A DNA stretch of 64,000 nucleotides from an uncultured Gemmatimonadaceae bacterium (lineage in GTDB: Bacteria; Gemmatimonadota; Gemmatimonadetes; Gemmatimonadales; Gemmatimonadaceae), in assembly GCA_963817955.1 (NCBI GenBank), contig CAWFQK010000001.1, positions 21,675-85,674 of the forward strand. Reading direction: 5' to 3'. This document shows positions 908 through 61,022 of this stretch, one piece after another. The notes beneath the pieces were generated by a model that was not told the DNA's origin, made no database searches, and saw only the letters and a program-made list of their open reading frames with translations. A program made the position numbers and the translations under genes. Position 1 is the first letter of the stretch. Every line of letters begins with the position of its first letter.

Positions 908-1038
908 ACACGGGCGTGCCTAGCGGACGACCGCGCAGGACCCCAGAATCAGGGGGCAATGCAACGTCATCACGCTCCCGAGCGTTGCATTATGGCGACC
1001 GTTGCCGCTCTCTGCCTCGACCCCCTCAGAGGTTCTTC

Positions 1039-8374: not shown

Positions 8375-8722
8375 ATGGCACGATTGACACGCAAAAAAGG
8401 CACACCAGCTAGCAAGAAGCCGCGGACGGACAAGTCCGACTACTTCACGCAGCCCGGAAAGCGTGGCGCGATCATCGTGCTGCGGAAGCCGATCGGCAAC
8501 CGTGCGGCGGCCAAGGTCTGCGGCGTCATGCCGAGCCGGGTGCACGCCAAGATGCTGATGACCCAGCTCGAGCGTGCGGAATCCGTGGTCAAAGACCTGT
8601 TCCTCGAGGCGACGGACGACGGCATCGAGGCGCTCGAGGCGGTCCTGGCCGCCTGCTGCAAAGAGGTGCTGGACAAAGGCCCCAAGGTGCGCCAAAGCGA
8701 CAGCTCAGGGGAGAGCGTCTAG
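8375..8722 (+). CDS. hypothetical protein
   Basis: ATG at 8375 is preceded by GGAG (8367-8370). Basic N-terminus and helical C-terminus. The track ORF 7961..8722 was trimmed. Confidence 0.4.
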   Translation: MARLTRKKGTPASKKPRTDKSDYFTQPGKRGAIIVLRKPIGNRAAAKVCGVMPSRVHAKMLMTQLERAESVVKDLFLEATDDGIEALEAVLAACCKEVLDKGPKVRQSDSSGESV

Positions 8723-9663
8723 GCCGGTTCCGTATCGCTCAGCTTCCGCACATCGATACTCACGACACCTTGCTGGTCGATGGGATTGTAGATGTTCACG
8801 AAGCGGTGCCCGAACACGACCTCATCCGGCTTGTACGATGAGCGCGCGTGCACCGTCTGCGCGAACGTTTCGTCCGTGCCGGCCAGCAGGATCATGAACT
8901 CGGCCTCCTTGGCCACGAGATCGGCGAGCGTCAAGCCGAAGAGCGGACTTCGCTCGCTGATCGGGTGAACGATGGTCCAACTCAGCGGAAAGAAGACGAC
9001 GCGTGCGCGCTCGAGGACGAGTTGGTCGTACGTGCGAGACGTCCCCTCGATGCGAGTGAACAACACGCTCGCCTCGAGGTTCAACAGTTGATTGGTCCGC
9101 TCGTTGACGATGCGGAACTCGAAGGCGGTCATGCCGCGGTACGGGGCGACGACCGCGCGGTCGCTGAACACCACGGCGGCGGTGGGTCGGGCAAAACGGG
9201 CGAAGAGGATGCCCGTTCCGAGCGCGAACACGAGCAGACCGGTGAGCGACTCAACGGTCATCACAAAATGCGCAGGCAGCCCATTCGGCGTCACAGTGCC
9301 ATACCCGATCGTGCCCAGCGTTTCGACGCTGAAGAAGAACGCGCGCCAGAACCCGTCGCCCAGTGCAGTACGCGGCGGCCCCATCAGCGATCCAGTCCCG
9401 CAGGCGAGATAGGCCAGCGCGAACACGACATTCGCGCCAACGTAGCCCGCTAGAATCAGCGCAAAGAAGCGCGGCCAACCGATCGTCAGAAAGTAGTGGT
9501 AGAGACTCAGCGACCGAAGAAACGACAGCCCTTTGCGCTGTGGACTGAACGTTCCGTCGCGATTGAGCAGCCGCTTCTCATTGACACCACCAACGACGGT
9601 GCCGAAGCCGAGATCCTGGGGTTCGTCTTGAAAGCCAGGCATTGGGCGCTGGACGTTAGACAT
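8719..9663 (-). CDS. inward-rectifier-type potassium channel (KirBac-like)
   Basis: Two TM helices flank the selectivity filter FFFSVETLGTIGYG. Followed by an IRK-type cytoplasmic beta-rich domain. The start was trimmed to MSNVQRPMPGF. Confidence 0.85.
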   Translation of the reverse strand: MSNVQRPMPGFQDEPQDLGFGTVVGGVNEKRLLNRDGTFSPQRKGLSFLRSLSLYHYFLTIGWPRFFALILAGYVGANVVFALAYLACGTGSLMGPPRTALGDGFWRAFFFSVETLGTIGYGTVTPNGLPAHFVMTVESLTGLLVFALGTGILFARFARPTAAVVFSDRAVVAPYRGMTAFEFRIVNERTNQLLNLEASVLFTRIEGTSRTYDQLVLERARVVFFPLSWTIVHPISERSPLFGLTLADLVAKEAEFMILLAGTDETFAQTVHARSSYKPDEVVFGHRFVNIYNPIDQQGVVSIDVRKLSDTEPA

Positions 9664-9695
9664 TTGACGCTCAATAAAGAGAAAGAACCATGCTG

Positions 9696-9736
9696 CTATG
9701 GAAACGGCACACCGTCTCGGTGTGCCGTTTCCATAG
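9696..9736 (-). terminator. perfect 19-bp stem / 3-nt loop hairpin downstream of the S9 peptidase gene
   Basis: CTATGGAAACGGCACACCG-tct-CGGTGTGCCGTTTCCATAG, about 45 nt after the stop at 9781. On the minus strand it is followed by a T-enriched tract (GGTTCTTTCTCTTTATT). Confidence 0.5.
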
Positions 9737-9780
9737 CCAATCACATTGCCAGCGTCGAACGTCTAACGTTTACACGAGTA

Positions 9781-12700: not shown

Positions 12701-12885
12701 GACAGCACTGACTGGCGAATGCTCTTCCACGCCTTGAGGTCGGCGGCCTGCAACTGCTTCGTTCCGCGCGACGGCGTTGTCTGCTGGGCCCGCGCGATTG
12801 GCGCGAACGCAAGAAGGAGGGCGGCGGGAGCGCAGGCAAGGCGAATCTGCCAGGCTCGCGCGCGCGGAGGGGGTGCAAGGCGCAT
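9781..12885 (-). CDS. S9 family serine peptidase with large N-terminal beta-propeller region
   Basis: Signal peptide (LLLAFAPIARAQQ). Catalytic motifs GLWGHSWGGYQTAF, HDDKDGAVD and GENHGL. Several G/R-rich insertions. Confidence 0.85.
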   Translation of the reverse strand: MRLAPPPRARAWQIRLACAPAALLLAFAPIARAQQTTPSRGTKQLQAADLKAWKSIRQSVLSNDGKWFAYVLAPNEGDANVIIRSTGADGKEMKFPIGDAGGGGAGGGAGGGSASLSISGDSRWVAFTVYPPSTNGRGGRGAGRGGPPGAAAAPPAAPTQNKMALVNLATGEKKDFDRVRRFVFNGDKPTWVAMQSYPAQSAPAGAAAPAAGGRGGAGGAPQARVDGSDVVLYNLSSGDAVNVGNVAEFSFDDTGEWLAYTIDARDQIGNGVQLRNMRTDVVRAVDSDHALYRHLVWSDSAYALVVLRGKADSTTHDTLFSVVSFNNVSVPSPKKVVFDPAQHSDFPKGMKIVADRAPRFSDDLGTLFFGIREAKKAPANDRTVAANGRGNNNMIQAGAPGVGGTVNQPRVSDTPDDNPTLILWNAKDPRLQSQQIVQEAQDRAFNYLSFYRVADNKFVRLSDDALRTVSTAGHDHFAYGVDTHDYDQQASYSGRRYEDLYAVDLKAGERKLLLKKHLASVTLPSPDGRNLLYWGDDAKWWIGDVATGEKHLLMKNPPTVFADTSDDHNNLVPPPVPPLGWSKDGSAVLLSDGFDVWKVPVHGGAPVNLTGNGKKEQIRYQRVYAFDNDRPAVSGGRGGRGGQAANGIDLSKPVYFSTYGEWTKKEGVSKVDPSKPGAQRLVWDDAKLAYQKAKDADVFVYTRQTAIDFPNYYVTDASFKPGQQITDANPQQKDFAWTSGVKLISYTTAKGDKLQGALYLPANYEPGKKYPLLVTIYEKRSNLANSYVTLNETSTPNRSIYTSHGYAVLDPDIVYKINDPGMSAVWALVPAVKAAVATGIVDSAKVGLWGHSWGGYQTAFMVTQTNIFKAAIAGAPLTDMVSMYSSIYWNSGGTNQAIFESSQGRFKGNVADNYEAYIRNSPVFHAKNVKTPLIILHDDKDGAVDFNQGITYFNTLRQMGKDVILLEYVGENHGLARPVNQKDYAMRQRDWFDHYLMGTPAPDWMTKGIPRIQMDDYWKQLKAAQPAVVPPVVP

Positions 12886-15096: not shown

Positions 15097-16788
15097 TCAA
15101 TAGCCGGCTGCGTGCCCGTCCTTTCGCGGGTCGGAGCCGGCCACATAGCCCCTCCCCAGCCTGATGATTGCCTGGCTGCCGCCGAACTGCGACGGCCGCG
15201 ACACCACGACATCATGCCCCATGGCGCGAAGCTGTGCCACGACGCTGTCGGCAATGACGGGCTCGACGAGCACGCGCACGCCATCCATGTGGCGGAAACG
15301 GCCAGCGTCCATGGCCTCCTGCACGTTCATCCCGAACACGAGAATGTTGATGAGAAACTGTGCATGACCCTGCGCCTGCATTGCCCCACCCATCAGCCCA
15401 AAGCTCATCCACGGCTCGTCGCCCGTGCCGTCCGGCGCAGAGCGCGGGCCCGGCTTCGTGACGAATCCCGGAATGAGCGTGTGAAACGGACGCTTGCCCG
15501 GCGCAACGGTATTCGGTAGCCCCGGCTCGAGCGTGAATCCCGCTCCGCGATCGTGCAACGCGAACCCGGTCCCCGGCACCACGACACCCGATCCAAACTC
15601 GTCAAACAGGCTGTTGATGAACGACACCATGTTGCCGTCCTTATCGGCAACGGTGAGATACACGGTCTCGCCCGACGTGCGCTCGGGACCCGGCTCAGCA
15701 TGCACCTGCGGCTTATGCTCGTCGACATGCGACCGGCGCTCGGCAATGAATGCATCGCTGAGCAGATAGCTGGGCGGCACCGTGAGATGCTCGGCGTCGC
15801 CCACGTACCGTCCGAGATCGGCGTAGGCGAGCTTCTTGGCCTCGATCAAATGGTGCAGATACGGCGCGGAATTCTGTCCCATGGCCTGCAGGTCATATGG
15901 GTCGAGAATCCGCAGCATCTCCAGCGTGGCAATTCCCTGGTTGTTCGGGGGCAACTCCCAGACGCGGTAGCCCTTGAACATCGTCGAGATGGGCGTGACC
16001 CACGTCGGCTGATTGTTCTTGAGATCATCCAGCGTGAGGAATCCGCCGAGTTTCTGTATGTGCTGCACGATGCGCTGGCCAAGCGCGCCCCCGTACAACG
16101 CGGCTGGTCCTTCCTTGGCCACTTGGCGCAGGGTAGCCGCATAATCAGGGTTTTGGAACCACTGGCCAGCCTTTGGCGTTGCGCCATTCACCAGGAACGT
16201 CGCACGAGCGCCGTCGTCATTCGTGAGTTTGCGTTGCTGGCCGAGCCAGTCGCCGGCAATGACGGGCGTGACGGGGAAACCCGTTTCCGCGTAATCGATC
16301 GCCGGTTGAAGCGCCTGCGCGAGCGTGATCGTGCCGTATTTGCGGAGGAGCTCGTTCCATCCGGCGAGTGCGCCGGGAACGGTCACCGTTTCAATGCCAC
16401 CGGACGGCATGCGCGTGCGGCCGCGTTTGAGCAACGTCTCGCGCGTCATCAGCGATCCCGCACGGCCGCTGGCGTTGAGCGCCACGAGATGCTTCTCCTT
16501 GGCGCTCCAGATCAGCGCGAACATGTCGCCGCCAATGCCGGTCATCATCGGCTCGACCACAGACAGCACCGCCGCCGCGGTCACCGCCGCATCGATCGCA
16601 TTGCCGCCGTGCTGCAGCACGTTGAGCGCCGCGGCCGTGGCGAGCGGCTGGCTCGTTGCGGCCACTCCGTTCGGCGCATATACGGGCGATCGTCCGGCCA
16701 TCGTGGCGGCGCGCTGCGCGTCAGCCGCGGCGGGAATGAGCAACAACGCGGCGGCGCTCACCGCGCGACAGAAGGCAACTCGGGGCAT
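15097..16788 (-). CDS. ggt: gamma-glutamyltransferase family protein (second paralogue)
   Basis: Signal peptide. GGNAIDAAVTAAAVLSVVEPMMTGIGGDMFALIW. Catalytic Thr context GETVYLTVADKDGN. C-terminal GGAMQAQGHAQ...GRFRH. Confidence 0.9.
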   Translation of the reverse strand: MPRVAFCRAVSAAALLLIPAAADAQRAATMAGRSPVYAPNGVAATSQPLATAAALNVLQHGGNAIDAAVTAAAVLSVVEPMMTGIGGDMFALIWSAKEKHLVALNASGRAGSLMTRETLLKRGRTRMPSGGIETVTVPGALAGWNELLRKYGTITLAQALQPAIDYAETGFPVTPVIAGDWLGQQRKLTNDDGARATFLVNGATPKAGQWFQNPDYAATLRQVAKEGPAALYGGALGQRIVQHIQKLGGFLTLDDLKNNQPTWVTPISTMFKGYRVWELPPNNQGIATLEMLRILDPYDLQAMGQNSAPYLHHLIEAKKLAYADLGRYVGDAEHLTVPPSYLLSDAFIAERRSHVDEHKPQVHAEPGPERTSGETVYLTVADKDGNMVSFINSLFDEFGSGVVVPGTGFALHDRGAGFTLEPGLPNTVAPGKRPFHTLIPGFVTKPGPRSAPDGTGDEPWMSFGLMGGAMQAQGHAQFLINILVFGMNVQEAMDAGRFRHMDGVRVLVEPVIADSVVAQLRAMGHDVVVSRPSQFGGSQAIIRLGRGYVAGSDPRKDGHAAGY

Positions 16789-20773: not shown

Positions 20774-22702
20774 ATGACCTCCCAATCCGAGCCGCGTCGC
20801 GCCATCGGCAGCGATGCGCTTTCAGTACGCCTTCAGGCGGCGCTCGCCGGAGAGTACTCCATTGAATGCGAGCTCGGCCGCGGTGGAATGGGCGTCGTTT
20901 ATCTGGCGCGTGAGGTGCGCCTGACGCGGGAGGTCGCCATCAAGATCCTCTTGCCCGAGGTGGCGGAACAAGCGGGCATGCGCGAACAGTTCGTTCGCGA
21001 GGCACAGACCGCGGCGCGGCTGTCGCACCCGAACATCGTCGCGATCCATCGCGTGGACGAGGCAGACGGCATCGTCTACTTCGTCATGGCGTACATCGCC
21101 GGCGAGACGCTGGCTCATCGCGTCGCCACACGCGGCGCGCTGCCACCGCATCAGGCAGCGCGCGTGCTGCGCGACGTGGCATGGGCGCTGACGTACGCAC
21201 ACGCGAGTGGGATCGTGCACCGTGACATCAAGGCCGACAACATTCTGATCGAGCAGTCCACGGGACGCGCGGTCGTGACGGACTTCGGCATTGCGGGTGT
21301 GACGAACGCCGTTGCGCGCACCGACAACGGCCAGATCGTTGGCAGCCCCCATTACGCCAGCCCCGAACAGATCTCCGGCCAGCCGCTGGATGCCATGAGC
21401 GATCTGTATTCCCTGGGCGTCGTGGGGTATCTGTCGCTGACCGGTCGCCTGCCCTTCGATGCGCAGACACCGCAGGACGTGTTGATGATGCATCTCAACG
21501 CCCGGCCGGCGGCGATTGCCACGCTCGCGCCCGCGGTGCCGCCCCGACTGACGCAGGTGATAGAACGGTGCCTGGCCAAGCGCCCGGAACATCGCTTCCC
21601 GAGCGCAACCGCCTTTGCCGACGCGCTGGACCAAGCGGTCGATCCGCCGCGTGAAATCCCCGCGCCACTTCGCGTCTGGCTCGCGCGCACGAATCGGAAC
21701 CCCCGCGCAGAGCTGATCGCGGGCGCTTTCCTCACATTGACGATAGGCGTGCCGTTGGCAACAGAGGGGGGCAACCCCTGGGCTGGACTGGCGGTCTCCC
21801 TGGCCTCGATTGTTGGCCTCGGCATCCTCCCGTCGGTGGCGCGGATGCGGCGCGTCGTAAAGGCTGGTTATGAGATCGACGATGTGCGCGTGGCTGTGCG
21901 CGAGTTCTGGATGAGGCGACGTGAAGAAGTCATGTACGAGCTGCAGGAGCGGCCGCGCGCCTTTGGACCACATGGCCTCCGATATCTTTTTGGCGCAAGT
22001 GCGCTGGGAGCGGTCGCGTTTTGGGCACTCGCAAACGAGGGTAGAGTGTTCCCGCTGGTCGCCGCCATCACGTGCGGAGCGGCTGCCGTCGGCTCCGGCT
22101 TGTTGGCGATCGCCGATTCGCAGCGCGCCTGGCGCATCCACAGTATCGGCGGCGCGCAACTCAAGTTCTACGGCGGCAAGTGGGGTGAACGCTTGGTCCG
22201 CGTGGCCGGTTGGGGCGTGAAGAACAAGGGCAAGGCGTCCTCGCTGCCGCAACTCACCGAGGTCGCGCTCGGACGCGCGACCGATGCGCTGTACAACGCA
22301 TTGCCAAAGGCTCTCCGCAAGCAGCTCAAGTCGCTGCCAAATACCGTGCGTCGGCTCGAAGTGGATGCACAGAAACTCCGCACGCAGATCGACCATCTCG
22401 ACGAATCAATGGTTTCGCTCCAAGGCGACGCCGGCTCGGACGCGCGCGATCGCCTGCTCGCCGATCTGCGCCTGACGCGGGAGCGCGGGAGCGACCGTCT
22501 TTCAGCCACCGTCGCGGCACTCGAGAACATCCGGCTGGATCTGATGCGGTTGCAGCTCGGCAACGGCCACATCCAATCCGTCACCGCATCGCTCGAATCG
22601 GCGCAGCAAGTGGCCGCCGATCTCGGTGCGTATGTCGATGCGGCACGCGAAGTGGAGGATCTCCTCGGTGCCGGCCCGTCTCCGGCGGCAGATCCCGCGT
22701 GA
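20774..22702 (+). CDS. membrane Ser/Thr protein kinase with C-terminal coiled-coil module
   Basis: Hanks motifs GRGGMGVVY, AIK, HRDIKADNILI, DFGIA, SPEQ. Followed by TM helices and a helical C-terminus. Confidence 0.85.
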   Translation: MTSQSEPRRAIGSDALSVRLQAALAGEYSIECELGRGGMGVVYLAREVRLTREVAIKILLPEVAEQAGMREQFVREAQTAARLSHPNIVAIHRVDEADGIVYFVMAYIAGETLAHRVATRGALPPHQAARVLRDVAWALTYAHASGIVHRDIKADNILIEQSTGRAVVTDFGIAGVTNAVARTDNGQIVGSPHYASPEQISGQPLDAMSDLYSLGVVGYLSLTGRLPFDAQTPQDVLMMHLNARPAAIATLAPAVPPRLTQVIERCLAKRPEHRFPSATAFADALDQAVDPPREIPAPLRVWLARTNRNPRAELIAGAFLTLTIGVPLATEGGNPWAGLAVSLASIVGLGILPSVARMRRVVKAGYEIDDVRVAVREFWMRRREEVMYELQERPRAFGPHGLRYLFGASALGAVAFWALANEGRVFPLVAAITCGAAAVGSGLLAIADSQRAWRIHSIGGAQLKFYGGKWGERLVRVAGWGVKNKGKASSLPQLTEVALGRATDALYNALPKALRKQLKSLPNTVRRLEVDAQKLRTQIDHLDESMVSLQGDAGSDARDRLLADLRLTRERGSDRLSATVAALENIRLDLMRLQLGNGHIQSVTASLESAQQVAADLGAYVDAAREVEDLLGAGPSPAADPA

Positions 22703-35374: not shown

Positions 35375-35552
35375 CTCCCCTCCATCTACTTCCCGAACAC
35401 TGGGTGCGCTGACCAGTAAGGCAGAGCCAATGCCAATCCCCGACGCAGATCGCGCGGTTGGAAGACTAACGATTTCAAGCACTTAGGGGAAACAGTGTAT
35501 ACATATATCGTAGACGGCTGTCTCTGTCGAGGGAAAAGGGTGTCCGTTCAGA

Positions 35553-35612
35553 GGGACACGAGACACGGGACACGGGACACGGGACACGGGACAACGGGAC
35601 AACGGGACAACG
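35553..35612. repeat. tandem heptamer/octamer array (GGACACG)x5 then (GGACAACG)x3
   Basis: Lies directly 3' of the pfkA stop. On the minus strand, GTGTCC-ctctgaac-GGACAC plus CCTTTTCCC forms a terminator-like hairpin (35537-35559). Confidence 0.9.
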
Positions 35613-35615
35613 GCA

Positions 35616-36695
35616 TCAGTCGCCAAAGCTGATGCCCGTCGCTCTTGCGGTCAGCACAATGTCGTGGGATGGATCGACTCGCTTGGGCTGGCGGAGCGCC
35701 TCCTCGATCGGGATCGTCACGATGTGCGGCGATTGTAGGGCGACCATCTGTCCCCATTTCTCGTCGGCCACCGCACGTACCGCAGCCCCGCCAAAGCGTG
35801 TGGCGAGCAGACGATCGTAACCAGTCGGCATTCCGCCGCGCTGCAGATGGCCGAGCACGAGCGAGCGCGTCTCCTTGCCGCTGATGCGCTGGATCTCCCG
35901 CGCCACCGTCTCGCACACGCCGCCAAGGCGGCGTGATTCACCGGGCAACGAGTCGCCGATGAGCGATACTTTGCCGCCCGCGGGAAAAGCGCCCTCGGCG
36001 ACGACGACGATGGAGAAGTGCCGGCCCGCGCGATCGCGGGCCATGATCTTCTCACACACCTTCTCGATGCTGTACGGAATCTCAGGAATGAGAATGACGT
36101 CGGCAGTCCCGGCAACGCCAGCGTTCAGCGCAATGAAGCCCGTGTCACGCCCCATCACCTCTATCACGATCACGCGATCGTGCGACTCGGCGGTGGTGTG
36201 CAGCTTGTCGATGGCGTCGATGGCGGTGTTGACGGCCGTGTCGAACCCGAACGTCGTGATCGTGCCGCTGACGTCATTGTCGATCGTCTTCGGCACGCCG
36301 ACGATCTTCATCCCCTTGTCGCAGAGCAACTTGGCGATGGTCAGCGAGCCGTCACCGCCAATGGCAATGAGTGCATCGATACCGAGTCGCCGCGCGTTTG
36401 CGATCAGTTCGTCCGAACGATCCTCCTCCACCACGCTGCCATCGGCGCACTTGCGCGGGTAATGGAACGGGTTGCCCCGATTCGTCGTCCGCAGGATCGT
36501 GCCGCCGAGGTGCGCGATGCCGCGCACGGAGTCCTTGGTGAGCGGCACGACTTCGTCTTCGCCCATCAACCCGGCGTAGCCACGCTTGATCCCGAGCACG
36601 TCCCAGCCGCAATTGATGGCGGAGAGCACGGCGGCGCGAATGACAGCATTGAGCCCGGGAGCGTCGCCGCCGCCGGTGGAAATGGCAATTCTCAT
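35616..36695 (-). CDS. pfkA: 6-phosphofructokinase
   Basis: MRIAISTGGGDAPGLNAVIR, IGGDGS, GVPKTIDND, MGRDTGF, LGHLQRGG. Confidence 0.9.
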   Translation of the reverse strand: MRIAISTGGGDAPGLNAVIRAAVLSAINCGWDVLGIKRGYAGLMGEDEVVPLTKDSVRGIAHLGGTILRTTNRGNPFHYPRKCADGSVVEEDRSDELIANARRLGIDALIAIGGDGSLTIAKLLCDKGMKIVGVPKTIDNDVSGTITTFGFDTAVNTAIDAIDKLHTTAESHDRVIVIEVMGRDTGFIALNAGVAGTADVILIPEIPYSIEKVCEKIMARDRAGRHFSIVVVAEGAFPAGGKVSLIGDSLPGESRRLGGVCETVAREIQRISGKETRSLVLGHLQRGGMPTGYDRLLATRFGGAAVRAVADEKWGQMVALQSPHIVTIPIEEALRQPKRVDPSHDIVLTARATGISFGD

Positions 36696-36741
36696 GGCAG
36701 AAACTTCGGCGGCAGCGACGTCAGATCCAAGGGCTGACAGT

Positions 36742-36969
36742 TCACCATCGCTGTTCCAGCAGCCGAACGATCTCTCCCGGCTCGGCGTGCCGTTTGGCCT
36801 TCGATTTCTCGAATACGGGTTCGCCGTCGGCGAGCACCTCGAACCGCCCGCCGCTTGACGGAATCATCTCGATCTGGGCTTCGGGAAAGCGTTCACGAAT
36901 CTCGGCCGCCAGCCTGGAGGCCCGAGGTTCGTAGTTTCATATGGTGCAGTATTCAATGGAGAGATGCAT
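36742..36969 (-). CDS. SelW/Rdx-family selenoprotein (in-frame TGA = Sec at codon 11)
   Basis: Hand translation gives MHLSIEYCTI-U-NYEPRASRLAAEIRERFPEAQIEMIPSSGGRFEVLADGEPVFEKSKAKRHAEPGEIVRLLEQRW*. It has a CxxU redox motif and the Rdx core (G.FEV..DG...fSK). Missed by the ORF track because of the TGA at 36937-36939. Confidence 0.8.
36897..36930 (-). promoter_or_regulatory. bacterial SECIS-like hairpin
   Basis: Starts 6 nt after the UGA. GAAcCUCGG-GCC[UCCAGGCU]GGC-gg-CCGAGaUUC: an ~11-bp interrupted stem, a GG bulge, and an 8-nt apical loop containing GG. Confidence 0.55.
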
Positions 36970-37027
36970 AGGTAGCTCGTGGTTGATTGTTCGGTGCGTC
37001 TGCGTCTGGAGCGTCTACGTCCGGTCC

Positions 37028-37261
37028 CTACTTGGTCGGAATGTGGTTCACTTCGGCGATTCGCGCGATGACCGTATCCTGGTGGGCGACGACCTGGCGA
37101 AGGGAATCGACGTTCGCCTGGACCTGCGCGACGTCGTTCTTCAGGTCGCCGATCTGGGTAGCGGCGTCGTTGAGGGCCTGGATCATGTTGGCCTCAGCGC
37201 GCGGATTGGTGCAGGCCGAGAGCAGCAGTGCGGCAGAGAGCAGTAGGCGCGTTGGGCGCAT
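37028..37261 (-). CDS. small coiled-coil lipoprotein (Lpp-like)
   Basis: Lipobox MRPTRLLLSAALLLSAC followed by heptad-like helical sequence (DLKNDVAQVQANVDSLRQVV). Confidence 0.6.
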   Translation of the reverse strand: MRPTRLLLSAALLLSACTNPRAEANMIQALNDAATQIGDLKNDVAQVQANVDSLRQVVAHQDTVIARIAEVNHIPTK

Positions 37262-37344
37262 GGCGAGCGAAAGTGAAAGTGAAAGAGGTTGCTCGATGCA
37301 AAATGGTGCTGAGTTATAGCCCCGTCGAGCTTCTTTTGCGACGC

Positions 37345-37764
37345 ATGCGCCGGGCATTCACACTTCTCGAGCTCACCGTTGTCACCACGATCGCCGGCCT
37401 GCTCATGGCGATGGCCTTGCCGCACCTTGCCGGGCTCCGCAACAGTGCGGCGGTTCGCAGCGCCATGAGCGATCTGGGCGCCACGTTCTTCCAGGCACGG
37501 CAGCTGGCGATGGGGCGGCGGCTGGCTGTGGCGGTGGTGTTCGACACGGCCCACGGCACCGTCGAGCTCAGGGCAAATCGCCGACTTCTTGTCCGGCGAA
37601 CCCTGAAGTCGACATACGGGATCAGTCTTGGTGCCAACCGCGATTCGGCGGTGTATGACGCGAGGGGACTGGGCTATGGTGTGTCTAATATCACCGTTAC
37701 GGTTCGGCGCGGTGAATACACCGACACGTTGACCATGGCGCGGCTCGGCCGCGTGAGGTGGTGA
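37345..37764 (+). CDS. GspH/FimT-family pseudopilin (prepilin-type N-terminal methylation domain)
   Basis: MRRAFTLLELTVVTTIAGLLMAMALP prepilin motif. Confidence 0.7.
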   Translation: MRRAFTLLELTVVTTIAGLLMAMALPHLAGLRNSAAVRSAMSDLGATFFQARQLAMGRRLAVAVVFDTAHGTVELRANRRLLVRRTLKSTYGISLGANRDSAVYDARGLGYGVSNITVTVRRGEYTDTLTMARLGRVRW

Positions 37765-37884
37765 CAAGTGCTTATTCTGCCGATGTTTCGTCCCATATTT
37801 CGGATGGGATAGCACCACAGCCGATCACCGCGGGCAAAGCCCGATGTGACGTTCGCCGGACGGGGGTGGGTTATAGAGCCAGAG

Positions 37885-38424
37885 ATGAGCGACGATGCAG
37901 CCGACGTTCAACGCGTGTTGGCGGGAGACGCTGATGCATACGCCGCACTCGTTGACCGGTATTACGATCGGTGTGCTCGATTCGCGGTTCGCATGTTGGG
38001 AAGCCGCGACGACGCGGAAGATGCGCTGCAAGCCACCTTCTTGCGGGCGTATCGGGCACTTGATCGGTATCAGGAGCGCGATCGATTCAGTGCGTGGCTG
38101 TATCGGATTCTGGTGAATCAGTGCCGGAGCGTCGCCGCGCGCCGCGCGCATCGTGATCGGGTGTTTGTACGCGAGGAAGCATTGCTGCTGAATGCACCGG
38201 ATCTGTCGGTGTCGTGGTCAGCGGAAGACGAGGAATATGTTCAGCGCGTGCTCAATGAGTTGGACCCGTTGTTGCGAGAAGCATTTCTGCTGAAGCACAT
38301 CGAAGAGTTGAGTTACGAGGAGATGTCGGCGTTGACCGGTGTTGGAGTCTCCGCGTTGAAGATGCGTGTCAAGCGCGCGTGCGATCGGCTGCGCGAAAGG
38401 TGGGAGCGGATCAAGGATGATTGA
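37885..38424 (+). CDS. ECF sigma factor (sigma-70 family)
   Basis: Region 2 DAEDALQATFLRAYRALDRYQERDRFSAWLYRILVNQCRS. Region 4 LSYEEMSALTGVGVSALKMRVKRA. Confidence 0.85.
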   Translation: MSDDAADVQRVLAGDADAYAALVDRYYDRCARFAVRMLGSRDDAEDALQATFLRAYRALDRYQERDRFSAWLYRILVNQCRSVAARRAHRDRVFVREEALLLNAPDLSVSWSAEDEEYVQRVLNELDPLLREAFLLKHIEELSYEEMSALTGVGVSALKMRVKRACDRLRERWERIKDD

Positions 38425-39013
38425 CTCGAATCAGGACTCGCAGGACACATATATCGAATGGCTCGCCCGTGAGGCACGCCGCCCGGTCGCAACTGACCCT
38501 GCGGCGCGTGCGCGCATCATGGCGGCTGTTCGCATGGAGCCCGTCCCGCATCGCCACCACGGCTTCTGGGCGCGGCTCGGCGAGCCACGCGCGTTCTCCT
38601 TGAGTCCCGTCGGCAGCGTGTTGCTCGCGGCCGGCCTCGTCGGCATCGGAGTCGTTGTCGGCGGGATCACGAATAACCGGGACGGCCGTCAGGCCGGGCA
38701 ACCTTCGGTTGCTGTTGCTCCGCAGCTCCCGGTTTCTGACACGGTCGTCAAGTTTGTCTTCATCGCTCCGCAAGCCGGACAAGTCTCGGTGGTTGGTGAT
38801 TTCAACGGCTGGGATGCGACGAAGACGCCCATGGTTCGCGCAGCAAACAGCGGACTGTGGACGGTGGCATTGCCACTGACGGCTGGTCGCCATGTGTACG
38901 CGTACGTCGTTGATGGTTCCTGGAGTGCCGATCCGAGCGCGCCGCTCGCGCCCGATGATGGGTTCGGCCATGCCAATTCCGTCAAGATCGTTCGGAAAGG
39001 ATCTGCGCTGTGA
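38417..39013 (+). CDS. putative anti-sigma factor with extracytoplasmic CBM48/AMPK-beta-like glycogen-binding domain
   Basis: ATGA overlap with the sigma gene. One TM helix (VLLAAGLVGIGVVVGG). C-terminal VSVVGDFNGWDATKTPM...GLWTVALPLTAGRHVYAYVVDGSWSADP. Confidence 0.65.
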   Translation: MIDSNQDSQDTYIEWLAREARRPVATDPAARARIMAAVRMEPVPHRHHGFWARLGEPRAFSLSPVGSVLLAAGLVGIGVVVGGITNNRDGRQAGQPSVAVAPQLPVSDTVVKFVFIAPQAGQVSVVGDFNGWDATKTPMVRAANSGLWTVALPLTAGRHVYAYVVDGSWSADPSAPLAPDDGFGHANSVKIVRKGSAL

Positions 39014-39703: not shown

Positions 39704-40990
39704 ATGGACGAGCCGAAGGTCGCCATCCTGATACTTGCTGCAGCGCTGCTGGTTCCCGTGAGAGGGGAGCTTGCAGCGCAGATTGTCTCCAAGGTGGAGG
39801 CCGGGCAGTACACAGTATCGAGCGGTGCCCTTCCGGTGAGTGCGTTGCGCTTTGCGCCCACCGTCCAATTCGAGGCGCCCTATACCAAGATCACGGCGCA
39901 CGGCTCCGCGCTCGTCACGGAGCAGAATCTCCAGCTCGCCGATGGCATTGTTTCCGGCACGTTCACGTCGCCTACTGTTTACGGTGTCCGCGCCGAGATG
40001 ATCGGCAATGCTAGCCGAGCGATGGATGATCGCTCGCTGGGCACCGATCAGGTGGACGTCCAGACACGCGTGCATGTGCTCTTTCACCAACACGGCGGCG
40101 TCTGGTTCGGCGGCGGAGTGGCGCGGCCCTGGCGTGTTGCCGTGATCTCGTCGGCCGACCTGACCGACGCCGGTGCCTGGGCAAAAATGGGCGGCGCAAC
40201 GTCCAGATTCGGCGCTGCTACGTTGACCGCCACATTCACGAATTTCTCGTTCACGAAAGTGGCTTCGGTCACTGACAGCGGAATTACATCGTTGTCGTGC
40301 GCGACTGGTTCCCTGACGCCCGATGTCAGCAGCAACAGTGTCCGTCCGCTGTTCGTCGAAAGCGTCAATCCGAGTGCGTGCGAGCGGCAGTCTCGATTCG
40401 GCGACCTCGAGGGGTCGGTCCATTGGGAGATCGGCGTCATCGAGCTGAATGCCCAGGTCGGCCGACGCTTCGGCGACTCATACGACGTGACGCCAGACTC
40501 CCGTGAGTGGAGCGCCGCGAGCGCGACGATCTGGCTCAACGACCGAATCGCAATCGTCGGCGGCGGTGGCCGTCAGCCCGCACTACCCTTGCGCGGACTT
40601 CCCGCGCGGAGCTACGCCATGGGCGGCATCGAGCTCGCCTACTGGCCGATATCGAGGCCAGCGAGCGTTCCAGTTTCCCTGCCGCGCGCAGCGTTGTTGA
40701 AGAGCTTCGAGGTACGCCCTGCTGCGATGGGCATGCAGAAGCTCACCATTCGCGTGGGCGGTGTGGAGACGGTAGACGTCATGGGCGACTTCAGCGATTG
40801 GAGCCCGCTCACACTGGCCCGCAAGGGACGCGACCTGTGGGAGCTGTCTATCCCCCTGTCAGCTGGCATGCACCAAATCAACGTGCGCGTCGATGGCGGT
40901 CCGTGGATGGCCCCGCCGGGAATCCCGTTGATGCACGACAACTTCAATGGTGATGTGGGGCTGATCGTGGTGACCGGGGATAGGCTGTAA
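39704..40990 (+). CDS. hypothetical exported protein with C-terminal CBM48-like domain
   Basis: Signal peptide. Beta-rich body. C-terminal VDVMGDFSDWSPLTLARKGRDLWELSIPLSAGMHQINVRVDGGPWMAPP. Confidence 0.55.
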   Translation: MDEPKVAILILAAALLVPVRGELAAQIVSKVEAGQYTVSSGALPVSALRFAPTVQFEAPYTKITAHGSALVTEQNLQLADGIVSGTFTSPTVYGVRAEMIGNASRAMDDRSLGTDQVDVQTRVHVLFHQHGGVWFGGGVARPWRVAVISSADLTDAGAWAKMGGATSRFGAATLTATFTNFSFTKVASVTDSGITSLSCATGSLTPDVSSNSVRPLFVESVNPSACERQSRFGDLEGSVHWEIGVIELNAQVGRRFGDSYDVTPDSREWSAASATIWLNDRIAIVGGGGRQPALPLRGLPARSYAMGGIELAYWPISRPASVPVSLPRAALLKSFEVRPAAMGMQKLTIRVGGVETVDVMGDFSDWSPLTLARKGRDLWELSIPLSAGMHQINVRVDGGPWMAPPGIPLMHDNFNGDVGLIVVTGDRL

Positions 40991-42863: not shown

Positions 42864-43020
42864 TGATCGCGTTTCTTCGCCCGCAGAGCGTTAGCCGCGA
42901 GCGATCCCGACGAGCGTAGTCCATGAGTGCGCACATGCGTTGGACACGACTCGAGCAGAGGCAGGGCCCGCGCAGCGCGGGCGCATCCGAAACAGATTCA
43001 CCTTTTTACCCAACAGTAGC

Positions 43021-44727
43021 ATGAACGAACGTCGACGCCCCCCTCGTCGTGGACGCGGGCAACGTCCGCCTCGCTCCAATGGAGAGGCTGGTGACAACCC
43101 GTATCGCGAGGAAACGGAGGGTGCCGGTGGCGGCGAGGCTGTAGCCGAGCGCGTCACTCAGACCGAAGCGGAACCGGATTCTGCACCGAAAGCAGAGCGG
43201 TACGCACCCGCCGAAGCGCCACTGCCTGAGGCGACGGAGAGCCGAGACGAGCCGCGCACCCGTCCTAACCGCGACGAGAACGGAGCGGATTCCGGAACCA
43301 ACACCAGAGCCGACGGCGGCGAAACTTCCCCCGTTGGTCAGAGTCAGTCGACGCCCGTTGCCCCACGCGACCGCGCTGAACGACTGGACCGCGGGGACCG
43401 CGGAGATCGCGGAGACCGCGGAGATCGCGGAGACCGCGGAGACCGCGGAGATCGCGGAGACCGTGGAGATCGCGGAGACCGCGGAGATCGTGGAGACCGG
43501 GGCGACGGACGCAATGGACGCCGTCATCGTCGCGGTCGTGGACGCGGTGGTCCGCGCACCAGAGAGGCGGTTCAGCCGCAGGCGCCGCAACAGACCGTCC
43601 AGATCACCGCAACAGGTGAGATGCGCGGCTGGTTCGAGGGCGCCCGCGACGCCGGCTTCATTCGCCGGCCGGGCAATAGTTATCTCGCCGACGCCGGCGA
43701 TGCGTACGTTCCACCCCAGATCGTCCGCCAGTACGCGCTCCGTCGCGCCGATCTCATTGACGCGACCATCGGCATTGATCCGCGTGGCCGGCCAACCGTG
43801 GTCGAGATCCGTTCGATCAACGATGTCGATCCGGAGCTCGCAGCCAAACGTCCGGACTTCAACTCGCTCCCGGCATCCTACCCCGAGCGTAAGCTGTACA
43901 TGGAGACGGGACGTCCCGCCAAAGGCGGCCCGGAACTCACGCGCCGCGCCATCGACCTCATCGCGCCAATCGGATATGGCCAGCGGGCGCTGATCGTCGC
44001 GCCAGCCCGTGCCGGCAAGACCACCATATTGCACGCCATCACAGAAGGCGTCGCGATCAACCATCCCAACGCAACGCTGCTCATTCTGCTCGTCGACGAG
44101 CGTCCTGAGGAAGTCAGCGAGGCCATCTCGTGGGGTGTCGGCGAGGTTGTGTCATCAAGCTTCGACCAGCCAGCCCAGCGTCATGTGGAAGTGACGGAAA
44201 TGGTGCTCAACCGTGCTCACCGTCTCGTGGAGATGGGCAAGGACGTGGTCATCGTACTCGACTCGCTCACCCGCATGGCCCGCGCGCACAACACGGCGGA
44301 ACGCGGCACGGGGCGCACCCTCTCGGGCGGCCTCGATGCGACGGCAATGGCGAAGCCAAAGGCGTTCTTTGGATCCGCTCGCTCCATTCCCGATTCATCG
44401 GGTGGTGGTTCCCTCACGATCATCGCCACGGCGCTCGTCGAAACCGGCTCGCGCATGGATGACGTAATCTTCGAAGAGTTCAAGGGCACCGGGAACTGCG
44501 AGATAAAGCTCGATCGTGGCCTGGCGGAAAAGCGCATCTATCCGGCGATCGACATCGGGACGAGCGGCACGCGTCGCGAAGAGAAGCTCTTTCGCCCCGA
44601 CCAGATCGACAGTGTCTTCACGCTCCGCCGCGGCCTGAGCCAGATGCCGCCGCAATCGGCAATGGAGTGGTTGATCAAGCGGATCGCGGCGACGCCGAGC
44701 AATGACGCCCTCCTGGCAGGTTTGTAG
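43021..44727 (+). CDS. rho: transcription termination factor Rho with long R/D/G-rich N-terminal insertion
   Basis: Rho RNA-binding and ATPase motifs: GFIRRP, ALIVAPARAGKTTIL, LLVDERPEEV, DSLTRMARAHN, GGGSLTIIATALVETGSRMD, and KRIYPAIDI. Confidence 0.93.
   Translation: MNERRRPPRRGRGQRPPRSNGEAGDNPYREETEGAGGGEAVAERVTQTEAEPDSAPKAERYAPAEAPLPEATESRDEPRTRPNRDENGADSGTNTRADGGETSPVGQSQSTPVAPRDRAERLDRGDRGDRGDRGDRGDRGDRGDRGDRGDRGDRGDRGDRGDGRNGRRHRRGRGRGGPRTREAVQPQAPQQTVQITATGEMRGWFEGARDAGFIRRPGNSYLADAGDAYVPPQIVRQYALRRADLIDATIGIDPRGRPTVVEIRSINDVDPELAAKRPDFNSLPASYPERKLYMETGRPAKGGPELTRRAIDLIAPIGYGQRALIVAPARAGKTTILHAITEGVAINHPNATLLILLVDERPEEVSEAISWGVGEVVSSSFDQPAQRHVEVTEMVLNRAHRLVEMGKDVVIVLDSLTRMARAHNTAERGTGRTLSGGLDATAMAKPKAFFGSARSIPDSSGGGSLTIIATALVETGSRMDDVIFEEFKGTGNCEIKLDRGLAEKRIYPAIDIGTSGTRREEKLFRPDQIDSVFTLRRGLSQMPPQSAMEWLIKRIAATPSNDALLAGL
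43387..43506 (+). repeat. tandem 9-bp coding repeat GACCGCGGA/GATCGCGGA encoding (DRG)n inside rho
   Basis: About 13 units, translating to DRGDRGDRGDRGD.... Confidence 0.9.
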
Positions 44728-57104: not shown

Positions 57105-59081
57105 TCACAACCTCTTCATGTCCTCGGCTGCCTCGATGACATGGCCAATGTCCCGCGACAGCGCGCTTGCTTCCTGGGTCGCGCTCGTCTGATCCTCGAT
57201 CGCCGAGCCGATCCCCGAGGACCGTAGCTTCAGCAAATCGAACTTCAGATTCTGTAACATCAGGCTGGTGCTTTCGAGCTGGTTGGCCAGCGTGCGCCGG
57301 CGTTCGAGCAGATCGTGCAACGACGCCCGCTGCCGCTGGAGCAGCGACAAGCGCCGTTCCCGCTCCGCCGTTTCCGGCTCCGTCCCCATCGACGCAATGC
57401 GCGTGTCCAGGGCACCGAGCGATGCGCCGGACACGTCTGCGTCCAGCCGGTGCAGCGTCGTGGCCAATGACGCGGCGCGTTGCATCAGCGCATCCACCGT
57501 TGGGCGAACGTCCGGAATCATCTCGCGCTCGATCGGGCCCAGCGCGGCAACCATCTCGTGCACCATCGCGCGGTCCGACGCGACGCGACGCACTGTCTCG
57601 CCGAATGCGCCGGTCAGGACCTCGGCGGGCACCACCTCGGCGGCGAGCTGGTCGGGCGACTTCTGCACGCGCTGCGGTGCCGACGCCAATGCCAACGCAC
57701 CACCTGACCCGTCCGGCGGCGACTCGCCGCGCTCGGCGCGTTCCAACCGCAGTTTCTTGCGAATTCCCTTCTTGAACGCGTCAATCGGCCCTATGCCGTC
57801 CGACCAGATCGATCCGCCTTTCCGCAACACGCTGACGAACATGAACGCACTGGGGAAGACGAACCAGGGACCTGGGCCATGCGTGGCGACGTTGATCCCG
57901 AAAAAGAGTGTCGTCCAGGCCATCCAGCTGAACACGCTGCGTCGAAAGGCGACGACGCGATCATCCAGCGGACGATCATCGAAGTCCTTGTACCTGGTCG
58001 GCCAGACGACCTTGTCGTCCATCCCGAGCCCCATGCCGCCCACCGCCGCCCATCGCTGGCGAATGAGCAATTTGCGTTGCGTCCGGTACCAATGGCGCAA
58101 TTCACGTTTTCCCAGTCCGGGCGGGGGCGACGGAAACATCGCCGGCACGGGCGCAGGCGACTCCGACAGAGCCGGGAGCAGTGGCGGAGACAGATCCTGA
58201 GGCACCGACGACAATCTGTGCCCGCGTGACGAGACTTGCGCGCCCGCCAGCGCATCGCGGAACTCGGCTGCGTCTGCCCAGCGGTCTTCCGGCCGCTTGG
58301 CGAGCGCGCGATCGATTGCCAGGGCGAGATAGGCCGGTACTTCCGGTCGTCGCTCGCGAATGGGCCGCGGCCGTTCCGACACGTGCTTCACCAACATTGC
58401 CGGCGTGTTTGCCGCCTTGAACGGCGTGTCGCCGGCGAGCATGTGATAGCCGACGACGGCAAGCGAGTACAGGTCGCTGCGGCCGTCCACCTCGCGTTCG
58501 CCCAATGCCTGTTCCGGCGACATGTACGCCGGCGTTCCCACGGCCACACCCGTTACGGTGAGCCGCGTCTCGCCCGCCGCCGCGCGCGCGATGCCAAAAT
58601 CGGTGACCATCGGCCGCCCGCTGGCGCGATCGATGAGAATATTGTCAGGCTTGATGTCCCGGTGCACCACGCCGCGCGCATGCGCGTACGCCAGCGCATC
58701 GGCGACGTCACGCAGCACACGCACGGTCTTGTCCACCGACCACGCACCTTCGCGCGCCAGACGCACGCCGAGGCTCTCGCCGTCCACGTATGCCATGACG
58801 AAATACACGAGACTCTCACCATCCTGCTCGTCCACACTGTAGATCGGGACGATGTTCGGATGATTGAGTTGCGCAGCCGTCTGCGCCTCGCGAATGAATC
58901 GCGTGCGCACGTCGCCGTTGAATGCGACGTCGGGCGGCAGGACCTTGATCGCCACCGGCCGGTGCAGCCGCAGATCGGTGGCATGATACACCACCGCCAT
59001 ACCGCCGCGTCCGATCTCGTGTTCGATCAGGTACTGCGTGCCCACCGCGACAGTGATGCGGTCGCGCAGGTAATCGTTCAC
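57105..59081 (-). CDS. membrane Ser/Thr protein kinase with 2TM-like segment and C-terminal coiled-coil module
   Basis: GRGGMAVVY, AIK, HRDIKPDNILI, DFGIA, SPEQ. Then FRRSVFSWMAWTTLFFGINV... and a conserved LQNLKFDLLKLR motif. Confidence 0.85.
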   Translation of the reverse strand: MNDYLRDRITVAVGTQYLIEHEIGRGGMAVVYHATDLRLHRPVAIKVLPPDVAFNGDVRTRFIREAQTAAQLNHPNIVPIYSVDEQDGESLVYFVMAYVDGESLGVRLAREGAWSVDKTVRVLRDVADALAYAHARGVVHRDIKPDNILIDRASGRPMVTDFGIARAAAGETRLTVTGVAVGTPAYMSPEQALGEREVDGRSDLYSLAVVGYHMLAGDTPFKAANTPAMLVKHVSERPRPIRERRPEVPAYLALAIDRALAKRPEDRWADAAEFRDALAGAQVSSRGHRLSSVPQDLSPPLLPALSESPAPVPAMFPSPPPGLGKRELRHWYRTQRKLLIRQRWAAVGGMGLGMDDKVVWPTRYKDFDDRPLDDRVVAFRRSVFSWMAWTTLFFGINVATHGPGPWFVFPSAFMFVSVLRKGGSIWSDGIGPIDAFKKGIRKKLRLERAERGESPPDGSGGALALASAPQRVQKSPDQLAAEVVPAEVLTGAFGETVRRVASDRAMVHEMVAALGPIEREMIPDVRPTVDALMQRAASLATTLHRLDADVSGASLGALDTRIASMGTEPETAERERRLSLLQRQRASLHDLLERRRTLANQLESTSLMLQNLKFDLLKLRSSGIGSAIEDQTSATQEASALSRDIGHVIEAAEDMKRL

Positions 59082-59084
59082 CGA

Positions 59085-61022
59085 TTAGCGCGCCGCCGGA
59101 CGGGAGGCCGGGCGCGTCCCCGTGTTTCGGCTTCCACCCATCTCGTCCGACACGTACAACGCGCTATCCACGCTGTCGGCAAGATTGAGGGCGTCCATCG
59201 CCAGCGACGTGATGTGCTGCGGAGTCTGCGAGCCGGCGTTGAGGCGGATGAGATCGAGCTTGATGTTCTGCAACGCCACCACGCACGTCTCGAGCTTGGC
59301 CGCGACCGAGTCACGTTTCGCGACGATGTCGGACATCGCCCGCCGCTGCCGCTTCAGATACGCCAACCGGCGTACCCGCTCATCGCTCCCCGTCTCGTCT
59401 AGCGGATTGGCGGCGTCCTCGAGGCGTACGATCTCCGCCTCCAGCGCCTCGGACCCGCCGGGCGTCACATTCCGCTCGAGATCGGACATCGTGATCGCCA
59501 GATGTCTCACCTTCTCGGCGAGCAGGTCCGCGGACCGTCCGACGTCGGGAATCCGCGAACGCTCAGCGGCTGACATTCGGGCGAGCAGTCTGAGGATCTC
59601 GTTGCGGTCCGCTTCGGCGCGCCGAATGCGATCGCCAAAGTTGCCGGCCGCTCCCACCACGTCGTCGGTGCTCGCACCGGCCGCCGGCAACGCCGTTGCT
59701 CCGCTGGTTCGGCTGAGCCGCTGACGCCGCTGCTGACGCATCGCCTTGCGTTCATCGCGGTTGAATAGCGCGCGCGTGTAGGTGAGCGCGTCGTCGGCGA
59801 CGTCGATCAGATCGCGATCTCGCGGCTGGCGAAAGACGTCGCGCCAGTCGTATCCGTCGGCCCAGAGCTTGGCGTAGCGAAACGCCAGGTAGATGCTCCA
59901 CAGCACCGTTAGACTGAACAAGTCGCTGCCGCCAACCACCGACGCGATCACGATTACGGCATTCACGAACAGGTACGGCGCGAGCTTGCGCCTGAACTTC
60001 ACCACCGGCTCTTGGTCCCAGCGGCGCAACTCTTCCGACGTCGGCGCGCGCGTCTCCATGGAATCCACCGAGCCTGCGGCGCGACTTGGCGTCAGCATCT
60101 GCGGCGTGGAGGGCGCGAACGCTGCCTGGTCCTGCGTCGAGGAACGCTCGGGCACTCGACCCGTGTCCAGTGCCGCGACCGTGGCAGCCGCCGACGGGAG
60201 GCGGTTCGCGGGATCCTTCTCCAGCAGGATCATGATGATGCGCGCCAGATCCTGCGGTACATCGGCTCGGCGCTGGTCCACCGGAATCGGACGCTCGGAG
60301 ATATGCTTGACCAGGATTGCCGGCGTGCTGTTGGCGATGAACGGCGGCTCGCCGGTCAGCATCTGGTAGCCCAGGATGCCAAGCGAGTACAGATCGCTGC
60401 GGCCGTCGATCGTCCGTTCGCCTGCGGCCTGTTCCGGCGACATGTACGTAGGCGTACCGATCGCAATGCCCGTAGCGGTGAGCCGCGAATCGCTATCGCT
60501 CACCGCGCGCGCGATGCCGAAGTCGGTCACCATGGGGCGGCCGCTTTGCGCATCGATGAGAATATTGTCGGGCTTGATGTCGCGGTGGACGACGCCGCGC
60601 TCATGGGCATAGGCGAGCGCGTCGGCTACGTCGCGCATCGTGCGGCGCGTCTCATCCACCGAGAGCGCACCGTGATCATGAAGCCGCTTTGCGAGGTTGT
60701 CGCCCGTGATGTATGCCATCACGAAGTAGACGATGCCTTCGGCTTCGTCTACCGCGTAGATGTCAACGATGTTCGGGTGATTGAGCTGCGCGGCGGTTTC
60801 CGCTTCGCGCAGAAAGCGCGTCTTGATGTCGCTGCGGAACGCCAACTCTGGTGGCAGTACTTTGATGGCGACCGTGCGCTTGAGGCGACGATCCTTCGCC
60901 CGGTACACGACTCCCATGCCCCCACGCCCAATCTCCTGGTCCAATTCATAATGGGGGCTGAGCACGCGATCCACATGCGCGCGCAGCTCCGAATCCGAAG
61001 ATGGGACGACAGGATCCGACAA
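59085..61022 (-). CDS. membrane Ser/Thr protein kinase, paralogue of the downstream gene
   Basis: GRGGMGVVY, AIK, HRDIKPDNILI, DFGIA. KFRRKLAPYLFVNAVIVIASVV (2TM-like). C-terminal ALQNIKLDLIRL motif. Its stop lies 3 nt before the next kinase's start. Confidence 0.85.
   Translation of the reverse strand: MSDPVVPSSDSELRAHVDRVLSPHYELDQEIGRGGMGVVYRAKDRRLKRTVAIKVLPPELAFRSDIKTRFLREAETAAQLNHPNIVDIYAVDEAEGIVYFVMAYITGDNLAKRLHDHGALSVDETRRTMRDVADALAYAHERGVVHRDIKPDNILIDAQSGRPMVTDFGIARAVSDSDSRLTATGIAIGTPTYMSPEQAAGERTIDGRSDLYSLGILGYQMLTGEPPFIANSTPAILVKHISERPIPVDQRRADVPQDLARIIMILLEKDPANRLPSAAATVAALDTGRVPERSSTQDQAAFAPSTPQMLTPSRAAGSVDSMETRAPTSEELRRWDQEPVVKFRRKLAPYLFVNAVIVIASVVGGSDLFSLTVLWSIYLAFRYAKLWADGYDWRDVFRQPRDRDLIDVADDALTYTRALFNRDERKAMRQQRRQRLSRTSGATALPAAGASTDDVVGAAGNFGDRIRRAEADRNEILRLLARMSAAERSRIPDVGRSADLLAEKVRHLAITMSDLERNVTPGGSEALEAEIVRLEDAANPLDETGSDERVRRLAYLKRQRRAMSDIVAKRDSVAAKLETCVVALQNIKLDLIRLNAGSQTPQHITSLAMDALNLADSVDSALYVSDEMGGSRNTGTRPASRPAAR

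Follow-up and report, generated by a model that had tools for sequence, protein, structure and literature searches.

A minus-strand gene of 75 codons very probably encodes a selenoprotein W-like (SelW-like) protein of the Rdx family, with a thioredoxin fold and with selenocysteine (Sec), specified by a UGA at codon 11, as its second redox residue. Direct support for this reading comes from the reading frame, the family assignment, the fold, the conservation of the TGA codon, and the conservation and covariation of an RNA hairpin just downstream of it. Throughout, 'the window' denotes the whole 64,000-nt stretch of DNA that was analysed, which has a G+C content of 62–66 per cent.

The reading frame and its protein family

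The frame runs from 36969 to 36742 and comprises 75 codons followed by a terminal TGA, with a further, in-frame TGA as codon 11. Its main features are the following.

36742..36969, minus strand: coding sequence of the SelW-like/Rdx-family selenoprotein, with predicted Sec at codon 11 (translation, HMM matches and 80 orthologous loci)
36967..36969, minus strand: ATG start codon (ATG or GTG at the aligned position in 78 of 81 sequences)
36946..36948, minus strand: Cys8 codon TGC, for the first redox position in CxxU (Cys in 81 of 81 sequences)
36937..36939, minus strand: in-frame TGA (UGA), predicted Sec codon 11 (TGA in the window and in 80 of the 80 best related loci)
36742..36744, minus strand: TGA that ends the gene (read from the sequence)

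A mechanical list of open reading frames retains a 41-aa remnant alone at this locus (36742–36867). An earlier sequence-only reading had proposed translation through the TGA, and our translation of the 75-residue product is identical to the proposed one, letter for letter. It had also placed the TGA at the second redox position of a C-x-x-U motif, which agrees with the local peptide I-E-Y-C8-T-I-U11. The terminal stop of the gene is likewise TGA in 50 of 81 orthologues. A Shine–Dalgarno-like motif is found in 27 of the 81 sequences only.

When U was entered as C, the product matched three family models over nearly its whole length, each above the curated cut-off: Pfam Rdx (PF10262; 71.6 bits, E = 6e-20, cut-off 22.6), NCBIfam TIGR02174 'CXXU_selWTH' (60.7 bits, cut-off 34.2) and NCBIfam NF041051 'SelT/SelW/SelH family (seleno)protein' (99.1 bits, cut-off 88). 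The Rdx assignment that had been made from the residue pattern is thus borne out by the models. Because of the family match (E = 6e-20) and the retention of the TGA in all of the 80 best related loci, a chance origin of the frame can be regarded as excluded on sequence grounds.

Bacterial Rdx proteins of the Cys form were retrieved from the PDB, namely 2FA8 (E = 7.8e-9), 3DEX, 2P0G, 2OBK, 2OJL and 2OKA, and their CxxC motif aligns exactly on C8-T-I-U11. The fold was assessed on an AlphaFold model of the closest Cys-form homolog (P0002; 76 aa, 64 per cent identical) in place of the window protein. That model (pLDDT 92.5) has a thioredoxin-like beta-alpha-beta-beta-beta-alpha topology (E2–8, H14–27, E32–38, E43–47, E50–54 and H66–75), in which the CxxC sits between beta1 (residues 2–8) and alpha1 (residues 14–27). 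It superposes on 2FA8, 2OBK, 2OKA, 3DEX and 2OJL with TM scores of 0.85–0.90 and rmsd values of 1.2–1.7 Å, on mouse SelW with a TM score of 0.69, and on thioredoxins with TM scores of about 0.5–0.6.

Conservation of the TGA codon in Gemmatimonadota

A scan of bacterial and archaeal contigs, with one genome per species, yielded 517 confirmed loci, of which the best 80 were analysed. All of these 80 come from metagenome-assembled genomes (MAGs) of Gemmatimonadota, mostly Gemmatimonadaceae, with one locus per species and 51–76 per cent identity. Read directly from the DNA, the aligned codon is TGA in every one of the best 80 of the 517 loci, and an open frame of 72–90 codons passes through it in each. 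The sequence-only reading had named termination at the equivalent position, or loss of the downstream frame, as the outcomes among orthologues that would count against it; neither occurs in the best 80 loci, and the peptide is conserved on both sides of the codon. As for which residue occupies this column, the codon is TGA in all 80 of these loci and encodes Cys (TGT or TGC) in rare relatives.

In the alignment of the 81 sequences (the window plus the best 80 loci), Ile5, Cys8 and Tyr13 are invariant. The entropies of the three codon positions are 0.68, 0.45 and 1.11 bits ahead of the TGA (codons 2–10), and 0.71, 0.53 and 1.27 bits past it (codons 12–66). No constraint is seen in the 30 nt that precede the ATG (about 1.9 bits in each phase), and coding periodicity begins at codon 2. 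Since the entropies match on either side of the TGA and the 5' flank is unconstrained, both sides appear to be translated as one protein.

A conserved hairpin downstream of the UGA

The RNA just 3' of the UGA can form a stem-loop, in which two nested elements are distinguished.

36904..36922, minus strand: conserved core of the predicted SECIS element, an 8-bp upper stem with a 3-nt apical loop, GGC, at 36914..36912 (pairing and covariation)
36894..36933, minus strand: extended stem-loop as folded in this genome, with a lineage-specific lower stem (minimum free energy [MFE] −19.8 to −20.8 kcal/mol)

The extended 40-nt stem-loop (36933..36894) encloses a 34-nt hairpin (36930..36897) that had been put forward earlier as a SECIS-like element. 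The 34-nt hairpin does fold, its spacing from the UGA suits a SECIS element and its apical 19 nt are conserved, but its lower stem is not. With only 64.4 per cent of its cells paired across relatives, the lower stem (36930–36923 / 36903–36897) was rejected as a conserved feature. Taken by itself, the window hairpin is unremarkable (z = −1.79; 11 of 200 shuffles are equally stable), and it gains significance only by comparison, through conservation and covariation of the apical 19 nt (36922..36904).

The comparison used an ungapped alignment of the 81 sequences (A2; column n is position 36946 − n of the window), where the core occupies columns 24–42. RNAalifold and a manual count delimit the same 19-nt core. 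Across the 81 sequences, the stem cells of the core are 94.1 per cent paired. Pairing over the whole tested structure is 81 per cent and falls to 24–44 per cent when the 3' partners are slid by 1–3 columns, and the observed covariation score was reached by none of 500 shuffles. In this genome, the core stem (36922–36915 / 36911–36904) contains one U × C mismatch. Two pairs covary: 36922/36904 (columns 24–42) is GC in 57 sequences, AU in 12, CG in 4, UA in 2 and UG in 1, and 36919/36907 (columns 27–39) is CG in 70, UG in 6, GC in 3 and UA in 1. The former pair links the third positions of Arg16 (CGN) and Ala22 (GCN), and the latter those of Ala17 and Ala21. Both pairs therefore lie at synonymous sites, and their covariation does not arise from constraint on the protein. 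The entropy of third codon positions is 0–0.65 bits within the stem vs. 1.5–1.96 bits just outside it. The loop opens with G in all 81 sequences; at its second position, 71 have U and 10 have G.

A published model of the bacterial SECIS (bSECIS) element (PMC13188914, Fig. 2) has an apical loop of 3–9 nt, an upper stem of 4–16 bp, a G within the first two loop positions that is usually followed by G or U, a distance of 16–37 nt from the UGA to the loop, and an MFE of −7.5 kcal/mol or lower. The window hairpin has a 3-nt loop (GGC) with G at its first position and an 8-bp stem. The spacing from UGA to loop is 22 nt (alignment columns 10–31) in all 81 sequences, which is within the range of the model. 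The MFE is −9.5 kcal/mol for the 19-nt core and −19.8 kcal/mol for the 40-nt element; for the 81 cores, it has a median of −12.6 kcal/mol. In every respect, 78 of the 81 sequences, that of the window included, conform to the model. Rfam returned no match, either to the window at the gathering threshold or to 36700–37030 at E ≤ 10, a result that may be uninformative, as a bacterial SECIS model is possibly absent from Rfam.

Relatives with a Cys codon (TGT or TGC) in place of the TGA serve as a control for this evidence. Such relatives from metagenomes (L083–L087; four distinct sequences) keep 7–8 of the 8 stem pairs. Either, therefore, a GC-rich genome that encodes the conserved peptide R-A-x-x-L-A-A is partly compatible with the stem, or the stem is a fossil, and the Cys-form stems may be fossil SECIS elements left by a recent conversion of Sec to Cys. 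The independent evidence for a SECIS element that stands after this control, judged from the aligned sequences, consists of the covariation at synonymous sites and the invariant loop G of the predicted Sec forms.

Selenocysteine machinery and the reading of the UGA

Pfam scans detected no selA, selB or selD gene among 40 open reading frames of the window, and tblastn searches with the Escherichia coli SelA, SelB and SelD proteins (NC_000913.3) gave no match in 1.29 Mb comprising the window and Gemmatimonadota flanks. ARAGORN reported no tRNA-Sec in the window and 60 related loci, and no tRNA gene of any kind was found in the 64-kb window. The lack of sel genes in 64 kb is expected by chance, since these genes may be unlinked to the gene described here. 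From the purifying selection on the UGA and the SECIS element across the phylum, we infer that the host genome has a Sec-decoding trait, which the sequence-only reading had stated as an implication of its proposal. The literature searched, the supplements to Peng et al. 2016 among it, contained no record of a Sec trait in Gemmatimonadota.

The absence of sel genes and tRNA-Sec from the window and the related loci searched would also agree with a different, improbable reading, in which the Sec machinery has been lost, a suppressor or near-cognate tRNA places Cys or Trp at the UGA and the hairpin is a relic. The fossil stem of the Cys-form relatives indicates that a stem can outlast its function for a time. 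The loop G argues against a relic, as it is present in 81 of 81 TGA-bearing sequences yet has been lost in two of the four distinct Cys forms. So does the covariation at synonymous sites, which indicates that the RNA structure is still under selection throughout the phylum, and the window hairpin itself still has every property of the bSECIS model.

Thirteen further candidates for TGA read-through in the window were all ordinary gene ends or adjacent genes in the same frame, barring one antisense artifact. This last candidate, a second TGA-interrupted open reading frame at 37825–38298 (minus strand), was rejected: it is antisense to the gene of an ECF sigma factor, and in relatives its stops fall at varying positions.

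Public annotation of the orthologs and remaining alternatives

A search of protein databases returned 441 relatives, the best 120 of which were inspected. Among these 120, 110 are only 52–63 aa long, cover about 70 per cent of the query and begin at 'LAAEI', just past the Sec column (for example, an NCBI 'Rdx family protein' of 57 aa and 'hypothetical protein HOQ11_07705' of 56 aa), 5 carry W at the Sec column, and 5 are true CxxC forms. One of the entries with W (P0001) was traced to its contig, where the codon is TGA; because of this, and because the record is not reproduced by translation table 11, we regard its W as an artifact of the gene caller. Shortened or W-bearing gene calls are as expected of a Sec codon that has not been recognized, and the public gene calls for this group of orthologs are systematically wrong.

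The 54–62-aa products of automatic gene calls, together with the 41-aa open reading frame that begins with ATG in the window, could be taken to mean that translation stops at the UGA and that the protein functions as a shorter Rdx fragment, starting either with that frame (36742–36867) or at 'LAAEI'. We consider this even less probable than read-through without Sec. Such a fragment would lack beta1 and the entire CxxU redox center, and the ten codons ahead of the TGA are under coding selection in the same frame and Ile5, Tyr/Phe7 and Cys8 are conserved. Moreover, the 'LAAEI' starts are CTG, TTG or ATG codons chosen by gene callers within a conserved helix.

The two remaining alternatives have a negligible probability. 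A pseudogene or sequencing error confined to this genome would require a single-base change of a Cys codon (TGC or TGT) to TGA, and true Cys forms exist; it is effectively refuted by the 80 independent assemblies of different species (the best 80 of 517 loci), all of which have TGA at this codon and an intact frame downstream. A genome-wide reassignment of TGA to Trp or Gly (genetic codes 4 or 25), which the W in some database translations might suggest, is refuted by the window itself, in which TGA is the most frequent ordinary stop and ends 13 of the 22 Pfam-supported genes, the SelW-like gene among them, and the W of P0001 is itself encoded by TGA. The frequent ordinary use of TGA as a stop and the conservation of the in-frame TGA therefore exclude a reassigned code, a pseudogene and a sequencing error.

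Proposed mechanism of decoding and function

For the favored reading, in which the UGA at codon 11 specifies Sec, we infer SelB-dependent insertion by the established bacterial pathway. A ribosome arriving at this UGA would meet the hairpin just downstream in the coding sequence, with a loop that starts with G 22 nt past the UGA. The hairpin would recruit the complex of SelB, GTP and Sec-tRNA(Sec), and Sec would be inserted where translation would otherwise end. No such hairpin accompanies the UGA at codon 76, which would act as a stop. A single mRNA would thus carry one recoded and one terminating UGA, told apart by the hairpin. The mature protein would have a Cys8-x-x-Sec11 pair between beta1 and alpha1 and would most likely be a thiol-dependent oxidoreductase that cycles between the selenolate/thiol and selenenylsulfide states.

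Genomic neighborhood

The gene downstream of the SelW-like gene encodes 6-phosphofructokinase.

35616..36695, minus strand: pfkA, 6-phosphofructokinase (PF00365, E = 7e-103), 46 nt downstream of the SelW-like gene

As had been noted from the sequence, the SelW-like frame ends 46 nt ahead of pfkA, which lies on the same strand and starts at 36695. The pfkA gene is directly downstream of the SelW-like gene in 56 of the 77 loci with enough sequence, and a 158-aa open reading frame and a 911-aa helicase-like gene come next in about 50–60 loci. The SelW-like gene and pfkA are probably co-transcribed. Upstream, a weakly pilin-like open reading frame (37228–37764, plus strand) and the gene of an ECF sigma factor (37846–38424, plus strand) run in the opposite direction, and the SelW–pfkA unit therefore probably has its own promoter at 37.0–37.3 kb. 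No sigma-70-type consensus was found in this region, and a scan of 35400–38000 for promoters and terminators revealed nothing in excess of the expectation from shuffles. The sole terminator-like hairpin in 35400–38000 (35540–35559, minus strand) is located 57 nt past the pfkA stop, in a scan whose hairpin count is not above that of shuffles, and is consistent with the SelW–pfkA unit ending there.

Several other features of the window were recorded. The pilin-like character of the open reading frame at 37228–37764 consists of a weak N-terminal methylation motif, and a divergent N_methyl gene likewise lies upstream in one Cys-form relative (L084). For a minus-strand open reading frame at 37028–37357, coiled-coil-like in sequence, tblastn gave matches in syntenic position at 17 loci. 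Either strand of 37028–37818 may thus be the coding one. The ECF sigma factor has Sigma70_r2 and r4_2 domains. Right after its gene, two plus-strand genes (38366–39013 and 39704–40990) encode proteins with C-terminal glycogen-binding-type modules (CBM48/AMPK1_CBM), at the position where an anti-sigma factor would be expected; for the protein encoded at 39704–40990, the match is to AMPK1_CBM only and is under the Pfam curated cut-off.

Farther away, two gamma-glutamyltranspeptidase paralogs and two large proteins of the S9 prolyl-oligopeptidase family are encoded within 17 kb (5894–7603, plus strand; 15097–16788, minus strand; 916–3384, plus strand; 9781–12885, minus strand), and this cluster may represent a neighborhood for the scavenging of glutathione or peptides. 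A KirBac-like, inward-rectifier-type K+ channel is encoded at 8719–9744 (minus strand; IRK_C cytoplasmic domain, E = 9e-20). The Rho termination factor (42940–44727, plus strand; 595 aa) has a long N-terminal extension, with a weak collagen-repeat-like match at residues 152–195, and its RNA-binding domain begins at about residue 230. Three eukaryotic-type Ser/Thr protein kinases of about 640–660 aa are encoded at 20774–22702 (plus strand), 57105–59081 (minus strand) and 59085–61022 (minus strand), the last two being adjacent.

Significance

The gene represents neither a new mechanism nor a new family; it is a SelW-like gene in a lineage where such genes are apparently undescribed. Its immediate value lies in the correction of annotation. 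Most public orthologs are stored as 54–62-aa fragments from which the active site is missing, or else show W in the Sec column, so that a selenoprotein conserved throughout an entire soil phylum escapes automated pipelines. The source organism is a probable selenium user. The 81 aligned sequences, as natural variants of one bacterial SECIS element with covariation at synonymous sites, would also be useful for modeling recognition by SelB.

Gemmatimonadota are a largely aerobic soil phylum. A bolder reading, which we hold to be doubtful, is that the phylum keeps the Sec trait almost universally, with the SelW-like protein fixed and never replaced, and that the adjacency of pfkA marks a functional link, such as redox control of phosphofructokinase, and hence of glycolytic flux, by the selenoprotein.

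Comparison with known systems

Bacterial SelW-like proteins with a CxxU motif have been known since 2004–2005. The family is abundant and mostly Sec-containing (PMC1088965, PMC1794560, PMC2398784), with few Cys homologs in Sec-using organisms (PMC1794560), and the use of TGA in all of the best 80 of the 517 loci fits this known preference for Sec. In a 2026 review, the prokaryotic SelW-like proteins (PF10262) are classed as 'predicted with high confidence' and not as experimentally shown (PMC13188914).

Among proteins of known structure, the closest counterparts are the Cys-form Rdx proteins 2FA8 (Atu0228), 3DEX (SAV_2001), 2P0G, 2OBK, 2OKA and 2OJL, which share an aligned redox motif and, judging from the homolog model, the same fold. 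They differ in having CxxC, in being about 25–30 residues longer and in their identity of only 21–33 per cent. Mammalian selenoprotein W (2NPB) and MIEN1 (2LJK) also have a thioredoxin-like Rdx fold with CxxU or CxxC after beta1 but are distant (phmmer E = 0.37; TM score of 0.69 for the homolog model).

The RNA element resembles bSECIS elements of the E. coli fdhF type, in which a hairpin lies just 3' of the UGA within the open reading frame and has a small loop with G followed by G or U. Compared to the fdhF element, its sequence is unrelated, its loop of only 3 nt (G-[U/G]-[U/C]) sits on a weak closing pair, A-U or G-U, and no conserved bulged U was identified in it. Eukaryotic SECIS elements, by contrast, are located in the 3' untranslated region and are recognized by SBP2 and eEFSec, not by SelB within the coding region.

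The gene is most similar to those of the known prokaryotic SelW-like proteins, with which it shares a product of about 75 aa, a CxxU motif right after beta1 and a predicted SECIS element within the gene with G in a small loop. The family model NF041051 is named after Campylobacter-type proteins, and the window sequence still scores above its equivalog cut-off. What sets the gene apart from the known prokaryotic examples is its host, a member of the Gemmatimonadota, and its conserved position beside pfkA.
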